Positions 4,715 through 63,937 of a DNA stretch of 64,000 bases are shown here, one piece after another. This DNA is from Okamejei kenojei (taxonomy: Eukaryota). The notes under the pieces were generated by a model that had not been told where the DNA came from, made no database searches, and saw nothing but the letters and a program-made list of their open reading frames with translations. The stretch spans positions 86,056,001 to 86,120,000 of the forward strand of contig CM069131.1 in NCBI GenBank assembly GCA_035221665.1, read 5' to 3'. The first letter of the stretch is position 1; every line of letters starts with the position of its first letter. The translations under genes and the position numbers were made by a program.

Positions 4715-5195
4715 TAGGCACAGAATGCTGGAGCAACTCAGCGGGACAGGCAGACAAGAGAGTCAGGGGAACGAGAGACTAGAGATATGTGGACGGGTAA
4801 GGTGTGAAAACGACAGATGAAAGCATACAATGGTTAATGAAATGTAGAATGGATCATTGTTAGCTGAAGGGAAGGTGACAAGGAGACAAACAATCAGTGA
4901 AATTAATCAGGAGGACAGTGAAACTAGTCGGAGAACTAGGGTGGGAGAAGGACGGAGAGAGAGGGGAAGCAAGTTAGAGAAATCAATATTCATACCGAAT
5001 AAAGCTGGAGTAAGGGTCACTGCGGTGGGTCAGACAGCATCTCTGGAGAAAGGGAATAGGTGACATTCCTGGTGTAGACCCTTCCCCAGCCTATTCCTGC
5101 CGTTGAATAGATGCATGACGGATTAACTCAGCGGGACAGGCAGCATCTTCGTAGAGAAGGAACGGGTGACGTTTCGGGTCGAGACCCTTCTTCAG
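4715..5195 (-). mobile_element. Penelope-like (PLE) 3'-end derived elements, minus strand
   Basis: Three partial copies of the gctggagtaactcagcgggacaggcagcatctctggag...gacccttcttcagact module, with a purine-rich 3'UTR and a remnant of the endonuclease C-terminus near 4970-4996. Confidence 0.7.
5168..5195 (-). ncRNA. Minimal hammerhead ribozyme motif (intact core, GUC cleavage triplet)
   Basis: The reverse complement reads CUGAAGA-A-GGGU(CUCG)ACCC-GAAA-CGUC. Confidence 0.65.
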
Positions 5196-5393
5196 ACTGG
5201 GTTGCACGCTGGTACTTTGAAACATGTGGTCCATAGAAATTAGCAGGAGTAGGCCATTAGCCCTTCGAGTTGACCTTTTGTTAAAATACATTTATGTTTG
5301 AGAGGTACACCTGTTTTTAGCAGTTATGTAATAAGGAGAGGCATGTGAGGGGAGGAGGGAGTGAGATAGCATGGCAGAGAAGGGTAAAGGAAC

Positions 5394-5945
5394 TCCAGCG
5401 GTATGAATATTGATTTCTCCAACTTCAATTACGCCTTGCTTTCCCTCTCGCTCCATCCTTCCCAGTTCTCCGACCAGTCTGACTGTACCCTTGATTACAT
5501 TGTATCTCTGACGATGGACACAAAAAGCTGGAGTAACTCAGCGGGACAGGCAGCATCTCTGGAGAGGAATGGATGACGTTTCCTGTCGAGACCCTTCTTC
5601 AGAAGGCGTTACTCATTCCTTCGCACCAGAGATGCTGCCTGTCCCTCTGAGTTACTCCAGCGTTTTGTGTCTATCTTCGGTTTAAACCAGCATCTGCAGT
5701 TCCTTCCTACATGTTGTATATCTGTTTGCTTTCTTGTCGCCTTCTCCTAGCTAACAATGGTCTATTCTACATTTTCCTTGATCCGCATCTCTTTTGATCT
5801 CTCGCACTTCCTTATCTCCGTAACTCCCTTTCCCCTGACGCTCAGCCAGGAGAAGGGTCTCGACCCGAAACGTCCACCCATTCCTTCTCTCCAGAGATAC
5901 TGCCTGTCCCGCTGAGTTACTCCAGCATTTAGCGTCTATCTTCAG
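5394..5945 (+). mobile_element. PLE 3' end with a nested foldback copy (5511-5713)
   Basis: Begins with SSGMNIDFSNF (PLE GIY-YIG endonuclease C-terminus-like). The nested inverted-repeat copy is flanked by TTGTATCTCTG (5500-5510) and TTGTATATCTG (5714-5724). Confidence 0.75.
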
Positions 5946-13567: not shown

Positions 13568-14215
13568 GTAGACACAGGATCTGCAGATGCTGGAATCTTG
13601 AGCAAAGTACACGAAGTGCTGGAGTAACTCAGCAGTTCAAGCAACATATCTGGAGAACATGGATAAGCAATGTTTTGGGTCAGGACTGATTGTGGTGGGG
13701 GTGTGGGGTTGAAACTGGAGGAGAGATGAGGGGCGGGACAAAGCCAAACCGATGATAGGTGAATACAAATGAGTGAGTTTGATTGGCAGATGGGTGGACA
13801 AAGGCCAGAGGTGCAAACGAGAGAAGGCTGTGAGATGAGAGAGTGATGTGAATTGAGGTGAGATGAAGGGTTGCGGAGGGGAGGGGGGGAGGGATGAGTT
13901 GGATAGAATGAGAAATGTGCTGCAAATCATGCTGAGGCACAGGAGGAGGAGGATGAGTGGGGGGGGAGGGTGAAGAAAGGGGGGGGGGGGGGGGGGGGGA
14001 GTGGGAATGTTGGCCAGTTACCAAATATTAGACAATTCAATGTTATACCATTGGTTTATAAGCTACCCCAGCAGAATGTGAGGTGGATGCTCCTCCAGAT
14101 TGCATGTGGCCTTACTCTAGCAATGGAGGAGCCCAGGAACAGAGAGATTAGTGTGGGAAGGGTAGTTACACTGGTTTGCAAGCAGGTGATCCAGCAGGCC
14201 TCGGCAGACCGAGCG
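13568..14215 (-). mobile_element. PLE 3' fragment with GIY-YIG C-terminal remnant
   Basis: gatgctggaatcttgagc...gctggagtaactcagc tail, purine-rich UTR with a G-run, and a degenerate reverse-strand LEExHLxFCWGSL...NIE motif at ~14030-14130. Confidence 0.7.
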
Positions 14216-15899
14216 TAGGTGTCACAGCGAGGCCAGTTCACTGAATGGATTTTCAAAGCTTTGATTCTGCTATGTTCAACCTCATTCTTCTACTCCATTC
14301 CCAGTCTCCCAGAGCAGGTTGCTGTGCAGACATTAGCCCTATTTAGAAACTCGTCTTTCTTGTATCGAAATATAGCTGTACCAATGCAGTTTATCAGGGT
14401 GTTTCCAGCAGCAAGGTTTGTTACACAAACTGTGGAATGTGATCAAACAAAACTGAATTTTATTTTGTATAAACAATTAATATGTTGTTACTTGGGTGAT
14501 TTCCTAGTTACCACCAGTATTTCTAGTTATTAAAGAATATTAAATCAGTATGTCAAATGTGTTGAGAAAATATATGAGACGATATTAAAAAAATAACTTG
14601 TTTCATCCCTCCTGAACTGCTCAATTACAGTTCATCTAATAACATAATTTCGCTTATCCTTTTTGTAAGACTACACAGAATGAAAACTCAAAACTGAAAT
14701 GTTACTTGCTGTTCATAACCTCAGCTGAAGCTTGATTTAACCTCGTGTAGTACAGATGAGGTTTGACATATGCGTGTTCCTGTCAGAAATGGATGTGTCT
14801 TCATTCATAGCACCTCGGGAAACTCCAGCATACTAATTGTCTCCCCTGAACCAGAACCCACCATCCCATGTGAATGCACCGAATATTAGCTTAGAAATAC
14901 AATTACCTCAGTAAGAGTGGCGTTTTGTATTGGTGTTCAATGCCTAGTTTGCTTCACATTGGCTGCCTCAATGGTTGACAGTGATCTATAGCCGGCAGGG
15001 GCCGGCCATAGTGCGAGAGATCAGGCTTCACTTCAGCTGTGGAATGTGATTCAGCGCCGAGCCCCCTCTGTCGGTCACAGCTGTCAGCCCCAAAGCAAAT
15101 ATTTCATATTTGTTAGGAATAAGCTGCGGAAATTCCCATTGTTAGTGGCTGTCAAGTCAACCTGACGTGAAGACATTGTTATCTGACAAGCAATTTATCT
15201 TTAAGTGCCTGTGGAATCTGCAAGAATGTTCCCTTGAAGTTTGTATTAACCTGTAAATGAATTTCCTGTCATATTCCTTTCCATTCACTTTGAGAAAAAA
15301 ACAAATTGGAATTTGCTTTCCAGAGATGCTTTGTAAAGGCGCGCTTGGTTTGGTTCACTTAAATGCAAAGCCTGCGCAAAACATGGGCAAAATGATCCCA
15401 CCACTCCTTTACAGAGCAGATTCCCGGACCTTGACTGTGACATCAAGGGTAGGGTGCAGAGAGCAGGCTAGACTGTTCCCCACAGGAGGGAGGGAGCCTC
15501 TGCTGCCAAGTCAACTCTTACTAGCAGCCCCTGCAAAGTGGATGAAGAGAATTAGTGTTTACTTCGGAAATGAAGAATAGTATCCATCATCTGTGGTCAC
15601 TCAAAACGAGAATGACTGTCCTATCTACATAGGGTCATCTACTTGTGGGTCTGCAGATGCCGATCCTTGATCCACATACCTTGGTGCAACGTGGGCAGTG
15701 GAGACTGGCGGTGGTAGTTAGTCGTCGAGCCCTCTTCTCTCTCTCTCTCTCTCTCTCTCCCCTTACGGTGCTGTTGCTTTGTCTCTGCGACATGGCACAG
15801 ATCCATTTAGTAACATGCAGCTCCTTCCTGCATGGATTTCCTCCAGGAGTGCCTGTCCAGTGCAATGTGCTCATTACCAACAGCATCTCAGCAGTTCAT

Positions 15900-15927
15900 C
15901 TGAAGAAGGGTCTCGACCCGAAACGTT
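15900..15927 (+). ncRNA. Minimal hammerhead ribozyme motif, sense to SLIT2 pre-mRNA
   Basis: CUGAAGA-A-GGGU(CUCG)ACCC-GAAA-CGUU. Confidence 0.65.
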
Positions 15928-15991
15928 GCCTATCTCCTTCGCTCCTTAGATGCTGCTGCACCCGCTGAGTTTCTCCAGCCTTTTGTGTACC
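15902..15991 (+). mobile_element. 90-nt hammerhead-bearing PLE-derived mini-insertion with 15-bp direct repeats
   Basis: Flanked by CTCAGCAGTTCATCT at 15887-15901 and 15992-16006. Confidence 0.8.
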
Positions 15992-16679
15992 CTCAGCAGT
16001 TCATCTATCTTTTTTTAATCTGACGTAGAATATAGAATTGTGCAGCACAGGAACAGGCCCTCTGTCCATAATGTCTGTGCTGAGCATGATGCCAAGACCA
16101 CCTATATCTACCTACAGAGCAATACAAAATTAAGTCCTTCCAGCTGGATATTGTGCAGCGATCGGAATGTAGGCCTAGTTTATTCTTTGGCAATATATTT
16201 AAGTTCAATTATGGCGAAGAGAAGTAGGATCAAAATGGGAAGCTGGCAGGATGATGAGGAGGGTGGGGGAGTGGCAGTTTACTGTATGTTAATACAATAA
16301 AAGAAAGAATGCAATAAAATTATCATGGGTCTGGAATGTATCAGATCTGTAATGTCACTGGCCCATAGTCATTCTGGGCCAGAATACTATTGTTCAAGCC
16401 TGCTCTGTTTTTTACTGTGGATTGCTTCTGTGTGTATACAGTAATGAACATCCTTCTGTCATTCTCCCCTGTGCATCACCCATGTTACCACAGCAGATTA
16501 TTAAATAGGACATCAAAGGGGAAAGTCATCTGAGGCAACTTCATTTATTTACGTGACTTTTGTTTCACTTAAATATCATTCAGGGTGCACCTGGTCTTTT
16601 GAAACTTTATTTTTCTAGAAGCAGTTTTAATTGTTCTTCACCCACCCCACACCTTGTTGTTTTGGAACCATGTTTTGAG

Positions 16680-17480: not shown

Positions 17481-19449
17481 GAATTACTTTGAAGCACAGA
17501 CAGAAGCTGGAATCTCGTACCACTGCTGCTTAGCTGCATGTGTGCTTCTAGCTAGTTTACCTTGATAAATGTGGTCATTCTGAATATCGGAGCCAAGCAT
17601 GAATTGTGTTGCCTAACGTTCATGCAAATGTTTAACAGCATGAACAGCAGGGATCCTAGGAAGGCATAAAAGAATTGAGAAACTAACTATAGATGCTGGA
17701 ATCTTGAGCAGAACAAAGTGCTGGAGTAACTCGGTGTATCGGGCAGCATCTGTTGAGGGAGCAGACTGGTGATGTTTCCGATCAGAACTCGTGATAGGTT
17801 GATAACTGCAGGAGAGCTAAGGAGAGGTAGTAAGAGGGGGTCTCACAGAACTCTCATTAGAAAGAGAACGTCTTCAAAGTAGTTATACATGGAAGGGATC
17901 TTGCAGTGGAGGAAATGCAGCCTGAATGCAGGTTTATTCCGAAGTGTGATCAGTGGAATGAGGTAAAGGTAAACGGGACTTCCCTTGGGTATTGGAAAAT
18001 TGCCGTTAATTTCCCCCATGTGATACAAATGCAAACAAAGGATGGCAAGAACCTGTTGTCCGTGTTCTTTCCTTATTTTCAGTTGCATAGCCTCCATGCT
18101 TCCAGTAAAGTGCTACTCCTTTATTGGAAGACTTGTCACCATTAGTTCTGTCTTCAGTGCCATCAGAGGAGTTGTTGGCAGGGATTCACGTCGCATAGCC
18201 TACCTGTAATGTGCAGTGGTTTTGAAGCAAGTTGCAGAAGATTATCTCGTGCTGGATGTGTAGTTAATAAAATAATTAAATGTACAAAATGTATAAAAAC
18301 ATAAAAATTAGACGCAAATAATAATTTAATATTTATAGTATCCATCTCTGTTTGGAGGTATTCCGGGAGGTCCATCAAATGATCTTGTGACTCCAGCTAC
18401 CTAACCCAGTCAAACAGCTTATGTCCCAACATCTCTTGTACCTCTGCAATTAACGCAGACTATTTCAAATTCTTACAGAAATAATGTGCTCATGTTTATT
18501 TTGGGCTCCCTGTGGGTTTCCTTCTTGATACATGCAGCAGGCCCTGGAAAACTGATCTTTAATTCTTGGGACAACCCATAAGATGCTTCCTTAGTTAAAG
18601 AAAGAAGCTTGGCAAGGAAATGGGGGCACAGGGACGAGGAGTAAAATGTTGACGGAGACGCAAGTAAATAAAACGGAATGCGTGTCCTGAGAAACCAGAA
18701 ATTAATTTGATCTGACATCAATTTTAAAAAGCACTCAGTTGCGTCTGTCTATTAATCTGCTGCGTGTCTACTTGTTTCTGGTTATAATGGACCTTGAATT
18801 ATTTCTTTCAGAGCTTTAATGACTTTCTTTTATGTAATTTAGAAGTGTCAGACAGTCAATAGTGACAAAATAATCCAATTTTTTCTGCAAACAAAGGTTT
18901 CAAACCATTGTCTGAAGCTGCAGCAAATGCTGATGAGATGAAGACCTTGCTCACTTCGAAGAAACTAACAGATAGTGACAAATGGGGAGCCTTTCATGCA
19001 AAGGATAGAAAGTGCTCTATTGGTTACATGGTTTGCATTTAAATGCTGGTGCTTTACATCTTTTCTTTAGGCTGTCCCACGAGATAGAAGATGATTTGCT
19101 TCCAGTCGGATTTAGTGGGTCCTGAGCTGGCAAATGAGCATCGTGGGGATTGGGGTTCCTCCGCAGATGCGGCACGCGGAGGCCAGTTGGGCAAACAGGA
19201 GGATGGTTTACGAGATGGTCCAGTTCAGTCTTGAACAAAGGGGGGAACTGGCATGTGAGGGAGGTTGCAGTGGTAGGCAGTAGATGGGACTGTTCGGTGA
19301 ACTTCCGTAATTTTGTCGTGCCAAATGTGGTGACACTTTTATGCTGCCTAGCTGAGGTCTGCTATACAATTTTACAGCTTCGTATACCAAACACAGCATT
19401 TCACTGTACCTCAGTACATGTAACAATAAAATATGGTTGAATCAATAGC

Positions 19450-20580
19450 AGAGGAATGGACACATGCATGCTTCCAATGCATGGTATGCAGGTTCTCAAT
19501 TCTCCTTCACTCAGAGTGTCCATGGCTAGAAATTTCTAAGAGTCAGTGGAGGATGTTGCTTTTCTTCAAGGTGACTTGGAGCACATCCTTGAATCTTTCC
19601 CTCTGTCTTCCCGGTAATCTCAACCCATGCTAAAGCTTGGAGTAGTGTCGGTTTTGGGAGACTGGTGTCAGGCAGGTTAATGATGTGACTGCCCAATGTG
19701 GCTGATTTGTAACAAGAAACGACTCAAAGTACTAGAGTAACTCGGTGGGTCAAGCAGCATCACTGGCGAACCTGAATAGGACGTGTTGGATTGCGGCAGG
19801 GCAAAGCCAGGCAAGTGATAGATGGATAGACACAAAATGCTGGAGTAACTCAGCTGGAAAGTCTGCATCTCTGGAGAGAAGGAATGGGTGCTGTTTCGGG
19901 TTGGGACCCTTCTTCAGACTCTACCCGAAACATCACCCATTCCTTCTCTCCAGAGATACTGCCTGTCCTGCTGTGTTACTCCAGCATTTTGTGTTTATCT
20001 TCAGTTTAAACCAGCATTTCTTCCTACGCATGTAATAGATGGATACAGGTGAGGGTTTTTTTACTGGCAGAAAGGTGGACAAAGGCCAGAGATAAGAAGA
20101 CAGAAGGCTGTGAGATAAGGAGTGAAATGTTAATCCAGAGGAAGGGATACAAGTGGAAGGTGAAAGGAGGGTGGGATAGTGGGTGAAATAGGTGCACATC
20201 CAGGTGGAGCACAGGGAAGAGGGGGGGTGGGGAAAGTGTTTGCAATTAGGGCTTTAATGCAGGGGTTGTTGGCACAGGGAAGGATGCCAATATTGCTTTG
20301 CTCATCCTTCCAGAAGACTTTCAGGATGTTGCAATGTTGGTGTTTGCTTGTTGTAGCCAGTAAAGGTTTTGGAAATGCATAGAAGGTGGGTTTCACTGTT
20401 GTCCAAGATTCTGTGATATATTTCTGCTGGGTCTGAGATCTTCATTTTCAAACACCCTTTTCCTCAACCTACTGAGAGCTGTGTTGACTGTGATGAATTG
20501 GACCATTGATTCTGTCCTCACCAAGAGATGGCTCCCAAGGTACAGGAAATGGCCCAGGCCTTCACCGTGAACCATTGTTG
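19450..20580 (-). mobile_element. RTE-clade LINE fragment interrupted by PLE elements (~19715-20240)
   Basis: Minus-strand HFLYLGSHLL and RLRKRVFENEDLR (RTE RT C-terminal motifs) and the HQHCxILKVFWKD segment. Confidence 0.65.
19829..20034. mobile_element. PLE-derived foldback element nested in another PLE copy
   Basis: Inverted arms gacacaaaatgctggagtaac / gttactccagcattttgtgtt; 11-bp direct repeat ATAGATGGATA at 19818-19828 and 20035-20045. Confidence 0.8.
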
Positions 20581-23500
20581 GAGAGCAGAGTGCTACGCTA
20601 CGGGCAAATTAGTTGGAGAACATATGTAAGCAGGTAAATAACAATATATTCAGTTTATGATTATAGGGAGAAAGGTGCTTTTTGGAAAGACAGGACTGCT
20701 ATTGAGGCATGCGGCTGCCTATATTGCTATTTAGCATTTCCCTCTTACTGGCTAAGTGGAATTAAATTTCCCTCTGGCTAAATGGTTTATTGCATTCTAG
20801 GCATCAGTTTAAGTATTCATCCCACGTGCTGAAGTTAATAAGTAGGCTAATTTTGGTAGGTCGGGAATGTTGTAGACCCAGCATTTCATGTGACTTTGAG
20901 TTTGTCAGTTGGTTTTCTGGATTTAGTAGTAAACTGTCACCAGAATAGAATTGGAGGACAGAACCAAGTACTTAAGTGCAAGTAAAAGAATTGTTTGAAT
21001 GTGGCAGAATTGCATGAATGATTAATGATCACTATCACACTGCATGTTCCTGATGGTCAGCCCTGTATACAGCATCGGTTTGACATCAGTGTTTAAATGG
21101 GAATTACCTTGTTGGAATGCATGATTGTAATCTAACGGAGATAAGGAGAATATTCTTAAAACGGGTCTGACTCTTTAAATTGTTTATGTAGGAGCGGCAC
21201 AAACAAGGGAACAGACCAAATCGCTCTTTAAAATTCCAAGGAGTTAAGTGAAATGTGGGAAGATTCTTGCTAAGATTGAAAATAAATGGCTCTGGAAGTA
21301 ATCTCGGCTCCGTCTCACTTTGAGATTAAGCATTGAGGCCAAAGAAAAATCATCCATTCTGGTGTAGGACCCACACACCTTTCCCTACCTCACACTCTGT
21401 AACAAGCTAAAAGTTTCTATCAGCAGAGATAAGCAATGTTCATCATTGAAGGCTGAAATGGCTACAAATAGAGAGGATTGGTGAAGAATAGCCTGAAACG
21501 AAATGTAACATTGTTTGCTATCAAAAAAGTATGTTGTGCACAGTGTGTATAATTATTGCCCTTTTTCTTCTGCAACATTGGTGGCTTTTGCATTAGAAAA
21601 AGGTGACAGTGTTCACTAGGATGTAACCACAATTGAATCAATGGATCTTATTTTGTACAGCTAATCCATTATTTGTCAGTCATACCTTGCGGTACAAATC
21701 GTCAGTGGGCATGTTGCTATAGAAACTCCTCAGAGGAAAGACCCTTGTAGGAAAGGAAATATTTCCTAATCTAATCAAATTCATTAAACAAATAAAGCAG
21801 CCAAACGATATTCCCAACTGCAGGAACTATCTTTGAAGTAGTGGGGAGGTCTCTGACTGCCCTACGGCTACAGATATGCATAGAGGTGAGAATAATTTCT
21901 TATCCTTTCTGGAGATGGTTGGCATTTTCTTTCATTATTGATAGCACAACATGAATTCTGAAGAATTCCAAAGAACACAGTGAGGTCAGGAAAAGTTTGC
22001 TTTATTTGTTACATAAGGCACAAAAAAATGCGTGGACTTTCTTTTTTTTTAAAAAAAAAAAAAAAAAAAACTTTTATGCCTTTAAGTTTTTGGGCCAGTT
22101 GCAGCCAGCTGGTGCTGTGAGCAGCTTGGCTCACTTTTGGATTTTCGCTTGGGTACAGTATGAATGGGAAGATGCTGGTACTGTTGATTGTCTGGTCCTC
22201 TGCTGGCACATTAATGATGCGAGACATCATTGAGCCCAGTGGTGGAGCAGAGGCTCACTATACAGGGTCCAGATTCACACCACATCAAGTCATGGAGAGA
22301 TAGTGTGGAAACAAGCCCTTTCGCCCAACCAGCCCACATGTGTCCTCAGCTTTAGACCATGGAGGGCTGACATATGGTGATCCTGTTTATGAGAACTGTT
22401 TCTCAAGCTGTGGCACAAGATAATGATGGCTTGATATTTTACTTTAATGATTTTAATATTCAATGCTATTTTTGGTTAAAATCATTGTTTCACTTTTTAA
22501 ATACCTTTGTCATTGTTTAAAACAAGGATAGTTACTGAATGTCAATAAATATCCAAGCCATTTAAAATTAGTTAAGGACCCTTTGTCAGCTGAGCTGACC
22601 TAAGTGATGAAGGCTTCCCAGGGAAGGGCTTCAGGCCATGTCTCCAGAGGATTAGTCACCACTCCAATCTCGTTTAGTCTTGGAGACCTGTGGAGTGTGA
22701 AAGGTCAGCTCATTTGGCTCTCCACATTCCTTGATTTGTTTAAGTTCTCTTTGGATGCGTTAGGCATAATAGTACTTAATATAAAACAAACTATATGCTT
22801 ACACCTTCTACCTGCAATTTATAACATTAAAGCCATCCTTGTAAAGTATTGACTATGGTTCAGTAGCCTTCCCTCTGGGTCAAAGCCAAATTGGTTGGAG
22901 CCCCTTTCCAGGATCTTGATTACAAAATCCAAAATGACAAGTCTCGGGGAATTGACCCAAAACATCACCTGTTCCTTTTCTCTTGCGATGCTGCCTGACC
23001 CGCTGAGTTACTCCAGCTTTTTGTGTCTATCTTTGGTGTATGACCAGCATCTGCAGTTCCTTCCTACACATGAAAATTCTAATGTACAATTGAGGAGATT
23101 TTTCAGCATGGGCAGCATCCATTGCCTTTAAACGGAATTGTGTTCTGGGGGTCATTTAGGATATCAGGGTTTTCCCCATGAAAGACATTGGTGAATCACA
23201 TGTGTGTTTTTTTTAATGACAATCTGGTAGCTTTTGTTATTATAGCAAGGACTAGTAGCCTTATTTCTACATTACCCTGCCTCATTGTGGGTTTCCTCTG
23301 GGTGCCCTGTGGTTTCCACCCACATACCAAACACATATGGTTTTGTAGGTTAATTGGCCTCTAAATTGCCCCTAACATGTAGGGAGTGGATGCCAAAATG
23401 GTATGACATTAGGGTGAACTTGTTAGTCAGTGTAGACTTGGTGGACAGAAAGGCCTATTTCCATGTTGTATCTTTCTGTCTGAAGAAGTGTTCCTTTTTT

Positions 23501-27448: not shown

Positions 27449-27592
27449 ATGTAGGAAGGAACTGCAGATGCTGGTTTAAACTGAAGATTGGCACAAAAAA
27501 GCTGGAATAACTCAGCGGGACAGGCAGCCATTCCTTTACTCCAGAGATACTGCCTGTCCTGCTGAATTACTTCATCTTTTTGTGTCTACTAT
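27449..27592. mobile_element. PLE-derived foldback element
   Basis: Inverted arms cacaaaaaagctggaataactcagcgggacaggcag / ctgcctgtcctgctgaattacttcatcttttttgtg; flanking repeat ata(a/g)attctaata. Confidence 0.7.
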
Positions 27593-31804: not shown

Positions 31805-32300
31805 AGATATAGACAAAGTGCTAGAGTAACTCAGCAGGACAGGCAGCATCTCTGGAGGTAAGGAATGGGTGATGTTTTGAGTCAGACCTGATGAAGAAGG
31901 ATCTCAACCTGAAATGTCACCCATTCCTTGTATCAAGAGATGCTGCCGGTCCCGTAGAGTTACTCTAGCATTTTGTGTCTATCTTTGCTGTGAATCAGCA
32001 TCCATACGTATGTGATTCAGCTGCAACATGCTGATCTGGTGCAGAAAACTTCAAACAACATGGTGTTTTCCCACCCTTCTCTTAATCCCACATCAGTTGT
32101 GATAAGCTACATTAAATAGACATAAAAAGCTAGGGAGCTCAGTGGGTCAGGCAACATCTCTGGAGAAAAGGAATAGGTGATTCGAGTCAAGACCCTTCTT
32201 CAGACTAGGAGCCAGGGGAGAGAGAACCGAGAGATATGAAAAGGTACATAGAACAAATGAATGAAAGATGTGCAAAAAGACAGATCAAAACCAACTAGAT
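31805..32300. mobile_element. PLE-derived foldback (31805-32005) plus a second minus-strand copy (32117-32300)
   Basis: Inverted gatatagacaaagtgctagagtaactc / agttactctagcattttgtgtctatc arms with a degenerate hammerhead centre (gaagaaggatctcaacctgaaatgtcac). Confidence 0.7.
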
Positions 32301-36457: not shown

Positions 36458-36597
36458 GGGTTTTTTGAAAACGTGATACAGTGTATGTGTGTCTTAGGGA
36501 AAATCCTGTCTGTTCTTCCGCTAAGTTAAGTAAATAGGAATATTCAGCGATATCTGACAGTGCCTGAAACTCCTTGCAACCACATAAAAACATTGCA

Positions 36598-36935
36598 GGG
36601 CCTCCTCCACGGCCAGAGTGAGCAACATCGCAAATTGGAGGAACAGCACCTCATATTCCGCTTGGGGAATCTGCATCCTCTTGGCTTGAACATTGAATTT
36701 TCTCAATTCTGTTAACCCTTGCTGTCTCCTCCCCTTCCCACCTCTCCCTCAGCCCTTGGGCTCCTCCTTTTACCTTTCTTCTCCCCGCACCCCCCACCTC
36801 CCATCAGTCTGAAGAAGGGTTTCGGCCCGAAACGTTGCCTATCTCCTTTGCTCCTTAGATGCTGCTGCACCCGCTGAGTTTCTCCAGCTTTTTGTGTACC
36901 CTCGATTTTCCAGCATCTGCAGTTCCTTCTTTAAC
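36598..36935 (+). mobile_element. 5'-truncated Penelope-like retroelement: endonuclease C-terminus, 3'UTR and hammerhead
   Basis: 36599-36715 reads GLLHGQSEQHRKLEEQHLIFRLGNLHPLGLNIEFSQFC* (PLE GIY-YIG C-terminal signature LEExxxIFxLxxLxPxGLN). 8-bp direct repeat ACATTGCA at 36590-36597 and 36936-36943. Confidence 0.85.
36809..36836 (+). ncRNA. Minimal hammerhead ribozyme motif, sense to SLIT2 pre-mRNA
   Basis: CUGAAGA-A-GGGU(UUCG)GCCC-GAAA-CGUU; stem II is capped by a UUCG loop. Confidence 0.7.
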
Positions 36936-39900
36936 ACATTGCAAACCATGCCATGTTCTCATTTAAAAATAAGAAAGCCACGCATGACAATAAGTCTAAA
37001 GTCTTAAAGCAGCCATGGCAATCACTTTTATATCTCCGTAAATCTCAGAGCACTCAAGATTGTGTGGATTGGAGCAAATAATAGAATTAACTTCTTTGGA
37101 TTGAAAGCAAGATTCACTGAATTGTTTTATAAATGAAAAGCAAAAAGCTGTACATTTATTAAATGGATGTCTGTTACGTTTGGGTTTAACCTCTTGGCTG
37201 GCTAGTTGATTTGTGGGAATTGGGAATAGGTATTAATTTTCTTTATTAGCAATTAATTTGTTCAGTCTGCAGCTCTGATCCCATCGCCTTCACGCTTACA
37301 ATGTGGGGCTGTAAAGGAGAACCAGGAGGTAAATGTTTCCAATATGTGCCCAAGTGGTAATTTTTTTAATTTAATATTTCCAAATACTGGAGCCAAACCA
37401 CACAAGGCCATGGGATTAAATCTTGATTCAAGTGGAATTAGGGAGGCTCTGGGGTAAGATTATTTTTCTCTTTTGATTTTTGTTCTGAATGAAAGGTTCA
37501 TTTGTAAAGGCACACCTGAATGTGTGCTGTGCAATTGTTTAAATCTGCCTTTAGGTTGTTTGGGGTGGATGGCATTTGGTCCAGGTGGAGGAAACACATT
37601 TGAAAGAAAGTCACCCTGGGGTATTCTATTACCCCATTTCAGTGTACAATTTGAAATATTTCTTGCCTATTAAAAGTTGTGTTTTCTGCCAAATCACAAC
37701 AATTTTGTTTAGAAATTGCTTGAAAAAATGTTTAACAGCTGAAAAGATGTACAGTTTCCATTCCTTTTTGCTTTCATGTTGGTTTTCGTATTATAAAATA
37801 TATCATAGTTCGTATATGACATTTCACATTTCATTTATCTATCATTCTTACAGATGATGGGTGGGTGAACAGCTAAATTTCTGATAGCTTTGTGTGCAAT
37901 AATATGTATTTTCTTTTGGCTATTCTGAAATGCCTGGCATCTAGAGTACATTTGAATTTTTACAAATTGGTTTTGAAATTCCTTCCCTGTCAATAACTTT
38001 AAAGATGTGTTATTGTATTAAAATTTGCCTTCAAAATTCATTCCAAGCTACAGAGTACTGATGCTACAATGCACTTAGCAACTGATTATGGGGGTGAATA
38101 TTGAGACATTCTTTGCACAACATACTAGAGACTGAACAAGTAAGTTGCCACAACTTTCTTTTTATAACCTATAAATGTGGGAAGGGTTAACCCAAGTGTC
38201 CAGTGAAGACTGGAACTGTGGGCAGATTTCTCAATCACAGCATGGCTACCCTGGTCAATTCTGGTACCTCTTGGAAAGCACATTGTTCAGTCTACTGACT
38301 GCTCATCTGAATCAAATAGATTCTGACTGTTTAATTTGGTTTGTTGGCTCACAGTTCAGTAATCATTCTGTGCTGATCAGCGGCACTGGATTGCACAAGT
38401 GTTTGACCTGAAATACTGATAACTATCGGGTAGAAATCTCTCTGTAGTATGTGCTAAAGGGAATAAATAGTAGCAGCTTTGCATTGTACATTGCTTCTGA
38501 AATTTGGTTTCTTTGAAAGAAGTGGGGTGAAATGTGTATCAACCACTATCATTCATGATTAGCACAAGATACCAAGGACTTTTTTTGAGTATATAGATGT
38601 GTGGAAGAAAATAGCATAAATGAGCTAGTTGTTGGAAGGGGTGATTTCTTCATGCAATTTATCAATATTCTGTGCATTGGTGATATGTGGAAAATAAAAT
38701 CTGAGCACATTAAGCATGGATGAGAATTGGCAGGCTTTAGTGCAGAAAGAAGACAAAAAAAAACATAACTGACTCTGTTACCAGCTCTTTGCCCTTAATT
38801 CAAAACCAGAACTTCCATTTGTCCTGTGAAATTCCTTGTGGTCACAAGCAATGCCTGTCTAAATCGAGGGCACAGGACGTTCTCATGGTTTTGTAATGAA
38901 ATAGAAAGACACCAGAAGGAAATCTCACCCTGTAGTGGAATGGTGTTCTGAACCAAACATGTACAACTCATACCATGCACTGTCAGAAAAATGAGGTGCT
39001 GCTGATTAGCCCCTGCTTGGGCACAGATCTGAGCGATAATGGAACAGGATCAAGACTACCTTTCATTGTTTTAGGCTTTAAGAAGTAATGTGCCATTGGT
39101 GTTCGTGTCCGGATGGTGTCCAAATTGCAGTATGGGTAGTAGTCTGAAAAGTTCCTGTGGAGTAGTGTGCCATTTCAAATCACCATCCACAGGCCAGCAG
39201 AGAAGGAATAGATCCACAGTTTAATAGAGATAAAAGCACAAAGAATATAAATCTACTTTACATAAGCATTTATCATTGGTTTTCCTTTTACTGCTGACAG
39301 ACGCGTTACTGCAAGTGCAACAGGCGAAAGCGATTTGTAATAGGAATAACATTTTCAGTGAATTTCTAAAATACGAAATATCTCCTTTGTTGGGCCTTTT
39401 GGCAAGGTTGTCAGTTTTGTTGACGCATAAAAGCAGGAGCTGCAGAGGGAAGTGTATCGAAAATCCTTTAGGAATTAAATTCTTCCAACCATGATTAAAG
39501 TGTATGACAGACATGTTGGATGCCATATTCCTGTACTTTTTCACTATGGCCTCTCCAGCCTCTGCCCTATTGAACACAACAATGGCCGTGCAGGCTTCAC
39601 AGGTTTCTGTTGCTACGGTTACTGTCGCCTTACTAAATCATAATCATTACTCATCCCATGAGGTGTCATGACAGCTGTTGCTGGCTTCCAACAGTAGGAA
39701 GACTTGGGGGTAATCTAGGCAGAAGAGAGGGAATTTTCAGGCAATATAGGAAGGAACTGCAGATGCTGATTTAAACCGAAGTTAGGCAGTGTTCCATAAG
39801 GTGGGTTTTAACATTTTGGCTCTGCTTGCTTGAGGCAGCTGTTGATGAGCCCTTGTAAGTCGGTCTGTGTCAACCTGGACTCCTAATTGTCATGGAAACC

Positions 39901-40942
39901 TGAGAGAGAAATGGCATTGTAAACTTTGTAACATTGAAAGGTTTTTTTTTTGCTGTTCTCGCCTGGGATTATATAGCTCTGTGTATTCATTGATTTTTTT
40001 TTTTTACACACTTCTAATATTATCATAAAATCTTTGGAAGTTTTGAATCGGATTGTTTGCTGCCCAGTGGTGGTGTGTGAATAGAACAATGTGTTTGCTT
40101 TGTCGTCTAAGCTACTGCGGCTCGTGGTGTTGTCCCACCCTGCCGGGTTGGACAAACTTCAAAGGAGCAGACCGCCTTTTGTTTCGGGGTCTCCTGCAGA
40201 ATCCAGTGACATTGCACACACTCGTATAGCCTGATGTCTTATTTACAAAGTGGTCTAATCTCTGTTGAGTAAAAGGCTTGTACTGCAGCAGCTTACAATC
40301 TTAACCAATGGAGTGCTTGACTTGCATCCTGAAAGTCAAACTCTAAATTTCCATTGAAGGATCATAGTCTGTCTACTGGGTATGGAAGGGATCTTGGTCA
40401 GACCAGCATTTTCTGATGTTTACCTAAATATTTGTTGTACAAATGAATAATGCCTTTAAAGGCTTTAAATCAACTTCCCTCCTGGGATAAATAAAGTTCT
40501 CTCTTATCGTAAGTGCAGTACATTTTAAAGTATCATCCATTTGTATAGCAAATATTTAGGTAAACTTATTATCAGAATGTGATGGTCTGGCCACTACCCA
40601 GTAGACGGCACTCTCTTCAAGGGATATTTAGAGTTTGGCAACAACTATATATATTCTTGCACTACTCGCTAAATTTCTAGTTGGTGACCAGGTCTAGTCA
40701 AGAGTGTGTAATTATCATATGTACTGACAGGGTAACAATGAAATTCTTGCTTGCAGCAGCATAACAGGCCTGTATACATAATACAGAAATAAGGAACTGC
40801 TCGGAAGAAGGGTCCCAACCTGAAGCTTCACCTCAAGTCTACTCTGCCGTTCAATCACGGCTGATCTATCTCCATCTACCTAACCCCATAACCACTGACA
40901 CCTGTACTGATAAGCATTTAGTATTTGACTGCCAACTTAAGG

Positions 40943-42502: not shown

Positions 42503-44117
42503 CAGTGGCTTGCAAAAGTATTCATACCCCTTGAACTTTTCCACATTTTGTCACGTTAAAACCACAAACGTAAATGTATTTTATTGGGATTTTATGTGAT
42601 AGACCAACACAAAGTGGCACATAATTGTGAAGTGGAAATGATACATTATTTTCAAATTTTTTTACAAATAAAAAACTGAAAAGTGTGGCGTGCAAAAGTA
42701 TTCAGCCCCCTTTATTCTGATACCCCTAAATAAAATCCAGTGCAACCAATTGCCTTCAGAAGTCACCTAATTAGTAAATTGAGTCCACTTGTGCGTAATC
42801 TAATCTCAGTATAAATACAGCTGTTCTGTGAAGGCCTCAGAGGTTTGTTAGAGAACATTAGTGAACAAACAATGTTCCTTGGGCATCATGAAGCCCAAGG
42901 AACACACCAGACAGGTCAGGGATAAAGTTGTGGAGAAGTTTAAAGCAGGGTTAGGTTATAAAAAAATATCCCAAGCTTTGAACATCTCATGCAGCACTGT
43001 TCAATCCATCATCCGAAAATGGAAAGAGTATGGCACAACTGCAAACCTACCAAGACATGGCCGTCCATCTAAACTGACAGGCCGGGCAAGGAGAGCATTG
43101 ATCAGAGAAGCAGCCAAGAGGCCCATGGTAACTCTGGGGAAGCTGCAGAGATCCACAGCTCAGGTGGGAGAATCTGTCCACTGGACAACTATTTGTCATG
43201 CACTCCACAAATCGGGCCTTTATGGAAGAGTGGCAAGAAGAAAGCCATTGTTGAAACAAAGCCATAAGAAGTCTCGTTTGCAGTTTGCCACAAGCCATGT
43301 GGGGGACACAGCAAACATGTGGAGGAAGGTGCTCTGGTCTGATGAGACCAAAATTGAAGTTTTTGACCTAAATGCAAAACGCTATGTGTGGCAGAAAACT
43401 AACACTGCACATCACCCTGAACACACCATCCCCACACATGGTGGTGGCAGCATCATGCTGTGGGGATGCTTTTCTTCAGCAGGGACAGGGAAGCTGGTCA
43501 GAGTTGATGGGAAGATGGATGGATCCAAATACTGGGCAATCTTGGAAGAAAACCTGTTGGTCTGCAAAAGACTTGAGACTGGGGTGGAGGTTCACCTTCC
43601 AGCAGGACAACGACCCTAAACATACAGCCAGAGCTACAATGGAATGGTTTAGATCTAAGCATATTCATGTGTTAGAATGGCCCATTCAAAGTCCAGACCT
43701 AAATCCAATTGAGAATCTCTGGCAAGACTTGAAAATTGCTGTTCACAGACGCTCTCCATCCAATTTGACTGAGCTTGAGCTATTTTGCAAAGAACAATGG
43801 GCAAAAATGTCAGTCTCTAGATGTGCAAAGCTGGTAGAGGCATACCCCAAAAGACTTGCAGCTGTAATTGCAGCGAAAGGTGGTTCTACAAAGTATTGAC
43901 TCAGGGGGGCTGAATACTTTTGCACGCCACACTTATCAGTTTTTTTATTTGCAATAAAATTTGGAAACCATGTATAATTTTCCTTCCACTTCACAATTAT
44001 GCACCACTTTGTGTTGGTATATCACATAAAATCCCAATAAAATACATTTACGTTTGTGGTTGTAACGTGACAAAATTTGGAAAAGTTCAAGTGGTATGAT
44101 TATTTTGCAAGCCACTG
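42503..44117 (+). mobile_element. Full-length Tc1 (IR/DR type, Passport-like) DNA transposon, 1615 bp
   Basis: TA-flanked (42501-42502, 44118-44119); ~210-bp TIRs starting CAGTGGCTTGCAAAA with an inner direct repeat GTGCAAAAGTATTCAGCCCCC; central DD34E transposase. Confidence 0.97.
42888..43899 (+). pseudogene. Tc1 DD34E transposase with one frameshift
   Basis: MKPKEHTRQVRDKVVEKFKAGLGYKKIS...GRPSKL...WSDETK...HGGGSIMLWGCF. Frame switch at ~43560 (ENLL|SAKDLRLG) into FQQDNDPKH...SPDLNPIENLW...KGGSTKY*. There are 34 residues between the second D and the E. TIPT-HGGG appears to lack the usual VK. Confidence 0.93.
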
Positions 44118-48059: not shown

Positions 48060-48756
48060 AGGCCCTGTCCCACTTATGCGTCCTTGGCACGTAAATTATG
48101 CGACCTCATCGTCGCGTTGAGGTGCACGGGCATCGTGTGGCCATGCGGGACCGGTCCCACTGAGAAGCACGGAGGGATATGGAGTTGTGCACGGTATCGC
48201 GCGGTGCTCCGTGATTTTGTACCGCACAAAATCTTCGCGCACCACCGGCCTGTCGCGTAACTGAAGGCCAGGGCAGTGGGACAGGCCCAAGACCCTGGCA
48301 CGATGCTACGTCACATCTCCAACAGCAGCAGAAGCAGGCAAACAATCGTCAAACGCAGCCTGGGGCCCACGGCCGTTGCGGATCCGGATCCGCCCCCACT
48401 TCAACTTCCAGAGCGGGGCCAAGAAAATTGAAGATAGACACAAAATAAAGGAGTAACTCAGCGGGACCGACAGCATCTCTGGAGGGAAGGAATGGATGAC
48501 GTTTTGGGTCAAGCCCCTTCTTTCAGACCGAAGAAGGGTCTCGACCCGAAACTTCACCCATTGCTTCTCTCCAGAGATGCTGCCAGTCCAGCTGAGTTAC
48601 TCCTGCATTTTGTGTCTATCTTCAAATGACGTCACACGCTCCAGGTGGCTGTGTGGGCGCGTGTAATCGCACGACTCTAGCGGGACCGTCGCACCTTAAT
48701 GCGACGCCGAGGTAGCTTAATTAGCGTGCCAAGGACACGTAAGTAGGACAGGGGCT
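48060..48756. mobile_element. PIF/Harbinger-like non-autonomous DNA transposon carrying a palindromic PLE insert
   Basis: Long imperfect TIRs AGGCCCTGTCCCACTTATGCGTCCTTGGCACG... / ...CGTGCCAAGGACACGTAAGTAGGACAGGGGCT; TTA/TAA flanks (TTAA on both sides); CpG-rich. Confidence 0.7.
48428..48625. mobile_element. Symmetric PLE/hammerhead foldback (~200-nt palindrome)
   Basis: TTGAAGATAGACACAAAAT...ATTTTGTGTCTATCTTCAA, with two degenerate hammerhead cores back to back around 48525-48530. Confidence 0.8.
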
Positions 48757-49674
48757 TAAGTTTATGGTGGACACGGAGAGCTTTGTGATAAGCAATGAAG
48801 GTTACTGTTGGTAGACGGGAATGCAGAGTGGTGTTTACATTCAGATCAGCCGTGATCTTATTAAATGGAGGGGCAGGCTTGAAGAGCCAGGAGCCTTACT
48901 CCTGATATAGTTTAGGCAGCAGGAGTTTGTATTTCTTTTCCTTAAAATTAGGAATATCCATCTGCCTTTAACAAGGGTAAATCACGGCAGGATTCAAAAA
49001 GAAAAATGTTACCATCTGCTGTGCCCTTCGATATTCTTTAAAACGGCTCTATTAAATTGCAGTTAGTGCCAGCAAGATACCTTTAACAGAGCATAATGTG
49101 CTGGAGGAACTCAGCAGATCAGGCAGCACCTCTGTTGGGAATGGACAGATGACCTTTAACCATTTGTAGAGTACAACAGCATTGTACAGTGATACCTCGG
49201 TGTGCACTGCAATGCTCTTCCATTATTGTAGTGCCAAACTTCTGCCTATCTACATAGTAGTGAAAATAGACTGCACTTGCTAGAAATCTGAAATAAAGAT
49301 CTGACTAAGTTTTTTCAACCTAAAACATTAGCTCCCTTTCTTTCCTCAGATGCTGCCTAGCTTCCTAAATGTATCCAGCCAATTGTTTTTATTTCCGTTG
49401 GTGCAGTGTCATGCAATGCTAAGCCAGTGCCGACCATTACTATATTCCACTTTTATACAGTATATTATTTTACCTCTTGTCACTTGAGTGAGGTATCCAT
49501 TGGCTGATTGGCCAAAATATCTCATGGTTGCCGGGGTGAGGCATCTGTGGGTTACTTGTGTCATCCCATGCTACTGAAACGACCCCAAGATTTCCTTTCA
49601 AGAGGAAGAAACTGCAGTGTCACAGAATTTAAGTGATCTACTGGAGACTGCAGGTGGGACTGGGTGGCTAACTT

Positions 49675-50489: not shown

Positions 50490-50622
50490 TTAGACACAAA
50501 AAGCTGGAGTAACTCAGTGGGACCGGCAGTATCTCTGGAGAGAAGGAATGGGTGAAGTTTCTCTCCAGAGATGATGCCAGTCCCGCTGAGTTACTCCAAC
50601 ATTTTGTGTCTATCTTCGGTTT
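50490..50622. mobile_element. PLE-derived foldback with deleted centre
   Basis: tagacacaaaaagctggagtaactcagtgggaccggcagtatctctggagaga / tctctccagagatgatgccagtcccgctgagttactccaacattttgtgtcta. Confidence 0.75.
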
Positions 50623-53712: not shown

Positions 53713-54284
53713 AAGTATAATTGGTAACAGACAAGAGCCAAAAATATATGGATATGAAGTTTTCTGCTGCAACTTGTCTAGCTTTCTTTCACCCCCACCC
53801 CTGCAATCAGTCTGAGGAAGGGTCCCGAGCTGAAACGTCAACTATCCATGCGCTCCTTGTATGCTGCCTGACTCGCTGAGCTAATCCAGCACTTTATTTC
53901 TTTCACTGAAATTACCAGTTAGCTACAGATAAAGAATACTATCTCAACTAAAGCTAAATTCTTTAGGAGGGTTATAGTGTAGGCAAACATCACAGCCAAT
54001 CTGCTCACAGCAGGATTTGACTAACACCATGAGAATAACATGTTTGAGGTGCTGGTTGAGGGATAAAGTCACAGGGATAACACTGTTAAGCTATTCTTAA
54101 GGTATTGCTATGGGATTTTTTTTTTTTAAAACAACTGAATAGTGTCTTACTTTAATCTTTTATTTAGGGTGGGACCTCCGACACAGCAACATTTCAATGG
54201 TTCAATAATTTATTGGTATGTTGTCATTTCCACTTGTACTTCACACTGGAACATCTGCCAATCAACCCATCCTTACCTGGATCC

Positions 54285-54565
54285 AAAGATAGAGACACAA
54301 AAAGCTGGAATAACTCAGTGGGTTAGACAACACCTGCGAGCAACCCGCTGAATTACTCCAGCTTTTTGTGTCTATCTTCGGTTTAAACCAGCATCTGTAG
54401 TTCCTTCCTACACTGATGGGGATCCACCTATCACTTGCAGGCTGTTGCTCCTCCTGTCTTTGTCTACCCTCTACTCCATTAATCTGAAGAAGTGTCCCAG
54501 CCTGTAAAGACACCCGTTCGCCTCCCTCCACAGATGCTGCCTGACCTCCCAGCACTTTGTTTTTA
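54285..54565. mobile_element. PLE-derived foldback plus an adjacent PLE 3' end
   Basis: agacacaaaaagctggaataactcag / gctgaattactccagctttttgtgtct arms, then a degenerate ctgaagaag...cagatgctgcctgacc module. Confidence 0.65.
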
Positions 54566-58237: not shown

Positions 58238-58650
58238 GAACTACAGATGATAGTTTACAAAACAAAGACACAGATGCTGGAGTAACTCAACGGGTCAGGC
58301 AGCATCCTTGGAGAAAATGGATAGGTGACATTTTGGGTCGGGACCCTTTATCAGATCTTAAGGTCCTGACCCAAAACATCACCTAATCATATGTAGGAAG
58401 GAACTGCAAAGCTGATTTATACTGAAGATGGACACAAAATGCTGGAGTAACTCAGCGGGTCAGGCAGCACCTCTGGAGAAAAACAAAAAGTAATGTCTTG
58501 GGTCAGAACCCTTCTTCGGATCCTTTTTCTCCAGGGATGCTGCCTGACCAGCTGAGTTACTCCAGCATTTTGTGTCTATCTGTCTATCACCTAATCTTGT
58601 TTTCCAGAGATGTTGTCTGACCTGCTGAGTTCCTCCAGCACTCTGCCTTT
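58238..58650. mobile_element. PLE foldback with a second foldback nested inside it
   Basis: The inner element 58389-58585 is flanked by ATCACCTAATC at 58378-58388 and 58586-58596. Confidence 0.75.
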
Positions 58651-62042: not shown

Positions 62043-62109
62043 TTAGTAGGGAATGTTCTGACATTGACTAAAAAATATTGAACAAAATGTGTTCCTTCGT
62101 TTTCAGGTT

Positions 62110-62840
62110 GTGCAGGTGTACATGCATGCTGCATGCTCACAGTGCAGGTGTACATGCATGCTGCATGGTCACAGTGCAGGTGTACATGCATGCTGCATGG
62201 CCACAGTGCAAGTAAGCATGCTGCATGGTCACAGTACAAGTATTCATGGATGGTCACAGTGCAAGTGTTCATGCATGCTTCATGGTCACAGTGCAGGTGT
62301 TTATGCATGCTTCATGGTCACAGTGCAAGTGTACATGCATGCTGCATGGTCACAGTGCGGGTATTCATGCATGCTGCATGGTCACAGTGCAGGTGTTCAT
62401 GCATGCTGCATGGTCACAGTGCAGGTGTTCATGCATGCTGCATGGTCACAGTGCAAGTGTACATGCATGCTGCATGGTCACAGTGCGGGTATTCATGCAT
62501 GCTGCATGGTCACAGTGCAAGTGTTCATGCATGCTGCATGGTCACAGTGCAAGTGTTCATGCATGCTGCATGGTCACAGTGCAGGTGTTCATGCATGCTG
62601 CATGGTCACAGTGCAGGTGTTCATGCATGCTGCATGGTCACAGTGCAGGTGTTCATGCATGCTGCATGGTCACAGTGCAGGTGTTCATGCATGCTGCATG
62701 GTCACAGTGCAGGTGTTTATGCATGCTGCATGGTCACAGTGCAAGTGTTCATGCATGCTTCATGGTCACAGTGCAGGTGTTCATGCATGCTGCATGGTCA
62801 CAGTGCAGGTGTTCATGCATGCTGCGTGATCGCAGTGCAG
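62110..62840 (+). repeat. 32-bp minisatellite, about 23 copies
   Basis: Unit GCATGCTGCATGGTCACAGTGCAGGTGTTCAT repeated head-to-tail with few substitutions and no spacers. Confidence 0.97.
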
Positions 62841-63937
62841 GACACTGTTGCCACTGCTATTTCAGCATTGCACCAAAAATAACTAGACCTGATACTAATA
62901 GCTGAATAGTGTACCAGCCTTTACTGAAATAGCACATTTAGACTTGTCAATATCCTTGGATTGAGAAAGTGCTAGACGGTGTTAGTAACAAGTACATTAA
63001 CTCATCTATTTAAAACATATCTGTTATTTAAAAGAAAGTGATGATTTGTTTGAAATTATTGTATTTGTAAACTCTGCACATTGAGGTATGTGTTAATGTG
63101 TTTGATATTAATATTGTGTCTTTGGTCCTTTAAAAAAAAAGGTTCCCTAATAAAGATATATTAAGAATGAGTCTGTAATTCTCTTTGTCCAGAATACATC
63201 TCTGTAGTCAGTCACTGGGAAAATCTGCCGATGGTCATTAAGGATTCTGTTGATTCTAGTTATTTGCATGCATAAAGAATTGGCTTGCACTTTCTTGCAT
63301 TGGGATTATAGTTTCATATATTTCACTTTATTTTCTTTATCCCTGTATTTGGTCCAACTCAACAACCTACTTGAATTGCCCTCTGAAGAGCCCTTGTTTC
63401 AACTGGATAATAAAATTAGACATATTCAGCGGCGTATTGAAATTCCACTGGAATTGTTATTAATACTTTAATTACCCTACTACTTTAAAAATGTTGTGTA
63501 TATGTTCAGTGAAGTCATGTCCACTTTGTGGGAGCATGCTGTCAGCAAATTGGCTGCTAATGTTTCTCTGCTGGATAATACTTTAAAAGTCTTATAATAC
63601 AGGAAACAATGACTGTAAAACACTTTGGGACATTAAGAATTCATGGCAGGAACCGGTGAAATGCAATCTCAGTCTACCTCTTCAAAAATGTGATTACATA
63701 AGACCTCAGTGTTGTATTTTCTATTGATGGGAAAACATTTCTGAAATATTAGCACATCATCCAACAACCAATTTGTTGGAAGTAATCTTTGAGATGAGTG
63801 TCAAGGCAATCATGTTCACGTGAACCATGCAAACTTAAAGAAACATCTCTGAATTTCCTATCTATATTCAAATTCATAGATACAATGGTAATGGGAAGAA
63901 AACATTGCAAATTTTAAATGCTCATCATTTTTTAATA

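Follow-up and report, generated by a model that had tools for sequence, protein, structure and literature searches.

The insertion at positions 36598-36935 of the 64-kb window (the whole stretch of 64,000 nucleotides analysed here) joins the end of an open reading frame to a hammerhead-like motif that recurs throughout the window. It raises the question of whether such copies represent a ribozyme unit that is mobile in its own right or fragments of a larger retroelement, and whether the motif they carry acts as a ribozyme. It is very probable, in our view, that this insertion (hereafter the anchor) and the copies near it arose as 5'-truncated or fold-back insertions of a very abundant, recently active Penelope-like element (PLE) that encodes an endonuclease and whose pLTR carries a minimal type-I hammerhead motif; most of these copies are likely dead on arrival rather than working ribozymes.

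A first-pass annotation, made from the letters alone, had described the anchor as flanked by a target-site duplication, and the 8-bp sequence ACATTGCA does stand at both of its edges (Table 1). Comparison with the natural copy L037 shows that the 3' duplication shares its first two letters with the terminus of the PLE tail. The open frame (36599-36712, with the stop at 36713-36715) reads GLLHG...LEEQHLIFRLGNLHPLGLNIEFSQFC and ends in FSQFC-stop. Its peptide shares 97% amino acid identity with residues 1148-1185 of the intact ORF P0002, so that the GIY-YIG-type C-terminus suspected earlier is the end of an intact RT plus GIY-YIG ORF. A Pfam search with the 38-aa peptide alone gave no match, and the peptide was assigned to the endonuclease because longer natural copies carry the same C-terminus. 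The motif letters at 36809-36836 are CUGAAGA-A-GGGU(UUCG)GCCC-GAAA-CGUU, with the 5' strand of a 2-bp helix I taken from the CAGT terminating the UTR; this CAGT may also be read as Inr-like or splice-acceptor-like. The hammerhead said to end the 3' UTR is thus in place, but the element runs about 100 nt further to a PLE tail. The anchor is colinear with the RT-bearing L037 of the same subfamily across all 338 nt (93.6% identity). Compared with L066, it is 94.5% identical at the ORF end and 96.2% at the ribozyme and tail, and differs in its shorter UTR and its UUCG loop. No other copy in the window retains a piece of the ORF that tblastn detects at E<=1e-4. The anchor is a 5'-truncated copy of a PLE whose protein has the Neptune/Nematis type of linker.

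Table 1. Parts of the anchor and other copies of the module in the window (window positions; a dot marks head-to-head pairs).
Feature	Position	Strand	Basis or remark
Target-site duplication, 5' copy (ACATTGCA)	36590-36597	+	read directly from sequence
PLE ORF end, 5'-truncated: last 38 codons, GIY-YIG endonuclease region, plus stop	36598-36715	+	match to intact ORF
Short pyrimidine-rich 3' UTR, subfamily B, last letters CAGT	36716-36808	+	colinearity with copy L037
Minimal type-I hammerhead motif with C3-A9 core, additional A, stem II of 4 bp closed by a UUCG loop, GAAA and palindromic ACGU; cleavage predicted after 36836	36809-36836	+	matches min-HHR as described in PMC4209133
Remaining pLTR to common short 3' end (about +92 from C3)	36837-36901	+	3'-end clustering of 100 young copies
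PLE tail of ~36 nt, long 3' end (about +128)	36902-36937	+	natural copies; last two bases overlap 3' duplication
Target-site duplication, 3' copy (ACATTGCA)	36936-36943	+	read directly from sequence
Decayed single copy	1902-1984	+	profile match
Copy of older subfamily; core and stem II intact	5116-5197	-	profile match; next decayed copy 4999-5089 minus
Fold-back pair; minus arm with core intact, stem II broken	5517-5671	.	profile match
Decayed copy, altered core start	5851-5936	+	profile match
Older copy: ORF-end remnant (~70% nt identity at 14017-14134), UTR, decayed module	13576-14134	-	extent inferred from two separate matches
Young ribozyme-to-short-end copy, begins at ribozyme's 5' edge; core and stem II intact	15899-15994	+	95.8% to anchor
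Fold-back pair; core decayed at GU step	19829-19995	.	profile match
Fold-back pair, downstream parts only, without ribozyme	27493-27586	.	profile match
Fold-back pair, decayed	31810-31979	.	profile match
Fold-back pair, centre at ribozyme's 5' edge, core decayed	48437-48616	.	profile match
Fold-back pair without ribozyme 5' half	50493-50610	.	profile match
Older-subfamily copy; core intact (N7=G), stem II broken	53810-53899	+	profile match
Fold-back pair, downstream parts only	54294-54372	.	profile match
Fold-back pair, decayed	58431-58576	.	also decayed copies 58272-58355 minus, 58587-58645 plus
Further decayed singles	4719-4753 (-), 17712-17790 (-), 19722-19784 (-), 22947-23027 (+), 32119-32205 (-)		profile match
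Further decayed singles	40802-40834 (+), 49092-49157 (-), 49315-49386 (+), 54483-54556 (+)		profile match

Many longer open frames end in the anchor peptide, and querying with an RT fragment returned many further long ones, two of them of 1,197 codons; 20 long-frame loci were extracted. In two natural copies, L066 and L067, an open 1,185-codon RT plus GIY-YIG ORF lies between two pLTRs that each contain the same hammerhead, with the two ribozymes separated by 3,955 and 3,954 nt, respectively. L066, L067, L070 and L082 repeat the ORF end, UTR and ribozyme upstream of the ORF, forming partial-tandem pLTRs, while the tail of L066 follows the 5' pLTR and is absent after the 3' pLTR. P0002 (1,185 aa) gave RVT_1 (E=5e-6) and GIY-YIG (E=1.5e-4) matches, both under the Pfam cut-offs; its protein-atlas neighbours are eukaryotic RT/GIY-YIG clusters at 0.98, and a PDB sequence search with the ORF returned 0 matches. 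Reading the protein by eye revealed DKG, YIDD and a C-X4-C-X2-C linker (CNRKKCNTC). The first ~460 aa of the PLE ORF (L066:3315-4700) are long, with a proline-rich mid-part, and matched no Pfam family. A CX2-5CxxC linker between RT and EN is described as a mark of Neptune and Nematis PLEs (PMC8557442), and a choice between these two clades would rest on motifs and on the host ranges of the clades rather than on a tree. The hallmarks of an EN+ PLE were all found: an ORF with RT plus GIY-YIG at its C-terminus, partial-tandem pLTRs, inverted truncated copies, a tail at one end and duplications of variable length. Together with the intact 1,185-codon ORF and the 94-96% identity of the anchor to the ORF end and ribozyme/tail of the full-length copies, they support the suggested PLE origin and the link to an autonomous RT plus GIY-YIG element, of which several subfamilies share a 28-nt ribozyme module that hardly varies.

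A profile built from natural copies detected 35 matches in 24 clusters in the window, with 15 of the 35 reaching the ribozyme's 5' part, and gave 0 matches in reversed sequence. The earlier estimate of about 20 modules in 64 kb was hence fair and, if anything, low. All seven example sites offered with it are present, but only 5 window sites hold the whole core and only 3 of them (36809, 15900 and 5195 minus) also keep stem II. Head-to-head fold-back pairs make up 8 of the 24 clusters. In 464 kb sampled irrespective of the motif, 200 profile matches included 18 full cores, 10 of them with stem II and 5 with the 2-bp helix I as well. The window also contains a Tc1/mariner-type transposase at 42852-43899 on the plus strand, apparently frameshift-broken, in two overlapping frames (HTH_Tnp_Tc3_2, E=7e-23; HTH_SB; DDE_3, E=3.5e-10), and a minisatellite at about 62068-62905 (plus) with long repetitive open frames in three frames; a tRNA search of the window found none.

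Across the 2.76-Gb genome, an exact 30-letter pattern matched 50,281 times against 0 in the control, and the relaxed core CTGANGA-N13-GAAACGTH matched 136,427 times (~49 per Mb) against 49, counts that exclude a chance origin of the motif. The very large repertoire foreseen for this genome therefore exists at the level of motifs, most of the intact cores lying in short copies. A 29-mer upstream of the ribozyme had 15,098 matches genome-wide versus 45,589 for a downstream 29-mer, and extrapolation from 200 matches per 464 kb would give about 1 million module fragments in the genome.

The motif contains the core CUGANGA / GAAA / UH, stem II, the extra N9.1, G10.1-C11.1 and the palindromic 15.2-16.2, and its identification as a minimal type-I PLE hammerhead with an extra base after A9 and a palindromic ACGU agrees with the min-HHR described in PMC4209133. 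An Rfam scan of the window returned no hammerhead family among 14 matches at E<=1, only chance hairpin families, as expected for a motif without stem III. For conservation, 659 copies were gathered via the downstream part, with core-picked sites left out, and the 486 retaining the ribozyme region were clustered on flank columns. When the commonest letters of the clusters were compared, none of the 11 core columns differed, against 0-1 of 8 columns in stem II and 24-25 of 65 in the flanks (core versus flank, Fisher p=0.014), a contrast that clustering on the flanks itself inflates. Although cluster members have decayed by 3-26%, the clusters agree in the 11 core positions, G10.1-C11.1, the extra N9.1 and the ACGU palindrome. 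The proposed core-versus-flank difference is thus present across subfamilies, with the reservation that N7, normally a free position, and most of stem II vary no more than the core does, so part of the core conservation may come from another constraint. Within clusters, departure from the commonest letter was 0.131-0.141 for the core and 0.127-0.130 for the flank; because the core decays as fast as the flank, the inserted copies carry no sign of selection.

The stem II difference noted between copies is a one-sided U-A versus U-G (182 versus 27 copies in the youngest cluster); no compensatory change was found in stem II among the clustered copies, and the changes in helix I are one-sided too. 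Helix I consists of 2 contiguous pairs, and the third position pairs in 5-19% of copies. By predicted folding, the active dimer fold lies at about -7 kcal/mol, whereas competing dimers reach -20 to -27, and in monomers stem II forms with P<=0.03. The 5' strand of stem II can instead pair with bases 28-31; this competing helix is paired in as many copies as stem II and likewise shows no covariation. Rare clusters hold two same-strand ribozymes 44 or 212 nt apart (L053:4415-4519 and L050:5729-5965), and pairs of this kind could supply a dimer in cis or seed a retrozyme-like array.

Insertion ends were scored in 100 unique young copies from the first 5.2 Mb of one contig, selected through a 29-mer that lies 3' of the ribozyme, with end positions uncertain by 1-3 nt. 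The 3' ends gather at +92 to +94 (45 copies) and at +125 to +129 (26 copies). Relative to C3, 52 of the 5' ends fall at -7 to +4, 10 at +5 to +27, 4 at or after +28, 9 at -60 to -8, and 25 further upstream. The upstream flanks of the 29 non-inverted hotspot copies are unrelated to one another, indicating that the 5' hotspot is a true boundary; an artefact of an unknown subfamily was rejected on the same ground. Cutting in vivo, which should have left 5' ends at the cleavage site, was rejected as a reading of these ends, since only 4 of 100 copies begin at or past the predicted site, all of them inverted arms. Of 61 non-inverted young copies, 25 have flanking duplications of 7-25 nt; in the control of mismatched flank pairs the figure is 142 of 3660 (3.9%).

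An inverted partner accompanies 39 of the 100 young copies, and exact fold-back junctions number 1,173 genome-wide. Where both arms of a pair were scored, one was tailed and the other short in 14 of 15 cases, and the exact fold-backs showed this combination in 22 of 30. Fold-back loci measure 129-259 bp, carry duplications of variable length (7-15 nt) in 14 of 30 cases, and vary from copy to copy in centre and arm length. At the hotspot, a G precedes the -3 start in 36 of the 100 matches listed versus ~27 expected (counted by eye; p=0.024) and a lone extra G follows the duplication in 1 of 30 loci, a signal too weak for us to accept a cap-derived G. Passengers inside two other repeats account for 8 of the 30 hotspot loci and inflate the hotspot count. 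The ribozyme-plus-tail insertion in L260, L262, L266, L274 and L275 sits inside another repeat of at least 1.7 kb that is 94-98% identical between loci, and whose flank may be DIRS-like. The second case is the compound fold-back insertion shared by L247, L250 and L252, with common flanks of ~330-430 bp. Some ribozyme copies thus appear, from these flanks, to have been spread by a second element.

Could the short copies be mobile in their own right? The first-pass annotation took them for a retrozyme-like, mostly non-autonomous derivative. On a reading of this kind the ribozyme-plus-tail unit would itself be the mobile element: its transcript would cleave itself, might form a circle, and would go back into the genome by means of the PLE machinery. 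Some two thirds of the young copies do lack UTR and ORF, the fold-back junctions are numerous, and retrozymes are reported to derive from PLE pLTRs (bioRxiv 10.64898/2026.07.22.740005). However, none of the window's 24 clusters is a tandem array (at least 2 units, each with a complete ribozyme), and among the first 100 young matches listed, close pairs within 1 kb comprise 2 on the same strand versus 13 head-to-head (counted by eye). The 5' ends spread over ~12 nt and rarely coincide with the cleavage site, fold-back centres and arm lengths differ per copy, and the short copies carry the downstream sequence of the autonomous subfamilies. We regard an independent retrozyme-like family as improbable, and that part of the annotation is not sustained: given variable ends, individual target duplications and 94-96% identity, the short copies look like truncated products of the autonomous family and are non-autonomous only in the sense of truncation. 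Even further from the evidence is the idea that the fold-backs are MITE-like and moved by a DNA transposase, which we hold to be highly improbable and largely refuted. Long terminal inverted arms, small size and the Tc1-like transposase within the window would suit it, but the arms are unequal, one tailed and one short, their centres vary, and the duplications are of variable length. Transposases of such type are expected to leave fixed TA or 8-bp duplications. Moreover, inverted 5'-truncated copies and a one-sided tail are already described as PLE features (PMC8557442, PMC3846280).

A different doubt concerns the function of the motif only and is compatible with PLE identity. The motif may be a real hammerhead that is no longer catalytic; source elements would then keep it for promoter function (or as an Inr-downstream element) or because it binds protein and signals priming, with no role for cleavage. 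The 2-bp helix I, the hairpin competing through sequence 3' of the cleavage site, the invariant N7 and the 96 of 100 copies starting upstream of the predicted cut site all lean this way. So does the Anolis PLE, for which ribozyme mutants insert normally in vitro, so that cutting is dispensable there, and for which no RNA ends are reported to map to the cut site (PMC11167929). Against it, the core, G10.1-C11.1, N9.1 and ACGU are kept across decayed clusters, the Anolis ribozyme cleaves in the presence of the element protein (PMC11167929), and D. virilis PLEs are reported to have a helix I of 2 bp as well (PMC4209133). Loss of catalysis in the source elements is, in our judgement, unlikely although it deserves serious weight. 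Related motifs are described as cleaving weakly as dimers (PMC4209133), and by analogy ribozyme activity in the source elements is plausible.

RNA evidence came from library contigs. Contigs of X6 and X7 include the pLTR, among them one of 484 nt that crosses the ribozyme unbroken, while the 5' part of the ORF lacks cover; strand, ends and level are not readable from such contigs, and contig sets X1-X4 look like DNA. Close relatives of the PLE are present in runs X1-X8 and X19-X24, from several organisms. In the runs aligned to the element, summed contig depth rises ~1000-fold from the 5' part of the ORF to the ribozyme and tail, the same gradient of 5' truncation, although depth is not copy number. 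In D. virilis a PLE splice acceptor is described at the position corresponding to CAG|TCTGA (PMC4209133). Here, no GT..AG joint occurred among the joints listed, the one GC..AG skip came from a single contig with a poor donor, and no upstream exon is shared among the hotspot copies; splicing at CAG|TCTGA is unsupported by these poor data.

Returning to truncated insertion of an autonomous PLE, the following pathway may account for the junctions. By analogy with the Anolis PLE, for which priming at two internal sites just 3' of the ribozyme is described in vitro (PMC11167929), the element protein would nick target DNA and prime reverse transcription at two such sites, using template RNA that is mostly uncut at the ribozyme. 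Synthesis would usually end early, about half the time at the 5' edge of the ribozyme. Two explanations of this hotspot were weighed. We give roughly even chances to the RNA itself starting there, with priming on a 5' leader; the conserved YCAGT at the hotspot, which we take to be Inr-like by its consensus, would then be the start site and short copies the run-off products of the leader. PLE promoters have been located in the pLTR (PMC2377424, PMC6765202), but the weak cap-G signal, the 12-nt-wide peak and the 8 of 30 passenger loci count against an RNA start. The main alternative, to which we assign a smaller though appreciable probability, is that a hairpin, which starts at +2 in predicted folds, brings synthesis to an end. 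If both target strands are primed, one from each site, head-to-head pairs with one tailed and one short arm would result. The ribozyme would likely be kept by selection in source elements, acting only as a dimer and/or with help from protein, and the inserted copies would decay neutrally.

The class to which this element belongs is already published: PLE pLTRs are described as carrying minimal hammerheads that become dispersed along with truncated copies. The present genome stands out by scale and tractability, since the family is young, retains intact ORFs and comprises >100,000 core-intact motifs. Its junction statistics bear on questions of PLE transposition such as where the RNA starts, whether the ribozyme cuts the template and why only one end has the tail. 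The axolotl, with a genome of 28.21 Gb (bioRxiv 10.64898/2026.07.22.740005), is reported to hold 126,247 hammerhead motifs (PMC7229834), a number that the 136,427 counted here exceeds in what is a rough comparison, as motif descriptors differ. We advance, as a tentative proposal held with somewhat less than even confidence, that the density of core-intact motifs here (~49/Mb) is roughly ten times that of axolotl and represents the densest hammerhead repertoire in the literature examined, coming from one PLE lineage, and that half of the insertions are complete run-off copies of a 95-130-nt RNA leader starting exactly at the ribozyme. If this leader interpretation is true, the PLE life cycle in vivo would be documented by junctions in the tens of thousands, with RNA start at the ribozyme, an uncut template, two priming sites, and one site per target strand in fold-backs. 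The neutral decay of inserted copies and their disfavoured active fold caution against equating motif counts with ribozymes; if even a small share cleaved inside introns, host transcripts could putatively be affected.

A literature search gave no account of this PLE family or of 5' ends concentrated at the edge of the ribozyme; such motifs may be listed in Lunse et al. 2017 (RNA Biol) or in supplement file 1 of PMC4209133, which lie outside that search. Among the closest known systems is the min-HHR of metazoan PLE pLTRs, including fish Xena, Poseidon and Neptune, as described by Cervera & de la Pena 2014 (PMC4209133). Shared are the type-I core, the extra A9/G10.1 base, G10.1-C11.1 and the palindromic 15.2-16.2, as well as the motif in both pLTRs a few kb apart, the mostly dispersed single motifs tied to truncated PLEs, and opposite-strand neighbours. 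By contrast, stem II has 4 bp here versus 7-8 in Schistosoma, helix I has 2 bp here, and the motif is very uniform here whereas it is highly variable there. Counts also diverge: the 136,427 found here far exceed those published for coelacanth (about 4,000) and Xenopus (9,000), which were obtained with differing descriptors. Similar to the EN+ Neptune and Nematis PLEs as presented in PMC8557442, the element has a single ORF with RT and C-terminal GIY-YIG, DKG, the CX2-5CxxC linker, a partial-tandem pLTR, inverted 5'-truncated copies and a 30-40-nt tail at one end; it differs by its long ORF (1,185 aa) with a proline-rich N-terminal half and by a 5'-end hotspot that the papers examined do not describe. 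The Anolis Poseidon PLE (PAc, PMC11167929) resembles it in two 3' end sites parted by the tail, a ribozyme upstream of the priming sites and insertions made mostly from uncut RNA. PAc belongs to a different clade, however, and the first Met of its ORF lies inside stem II, compared with 162 nt after C3 here, where the evidence is genomic only. Finally, metazoan non-LTR retrozymes (PMC7229834; bioRxiv 10.64898/2026.07.22.740005) are likewise non-coding, PLE-derived, equipped with a type-I hammerhead and very high in copy number. They are described as tandem 150-450-bp repeats with circular RNA and typically canonical ribozymes, whereas the copies in this genome are dispersed or fold-back, carry the minimal motif and match an autonomous family.
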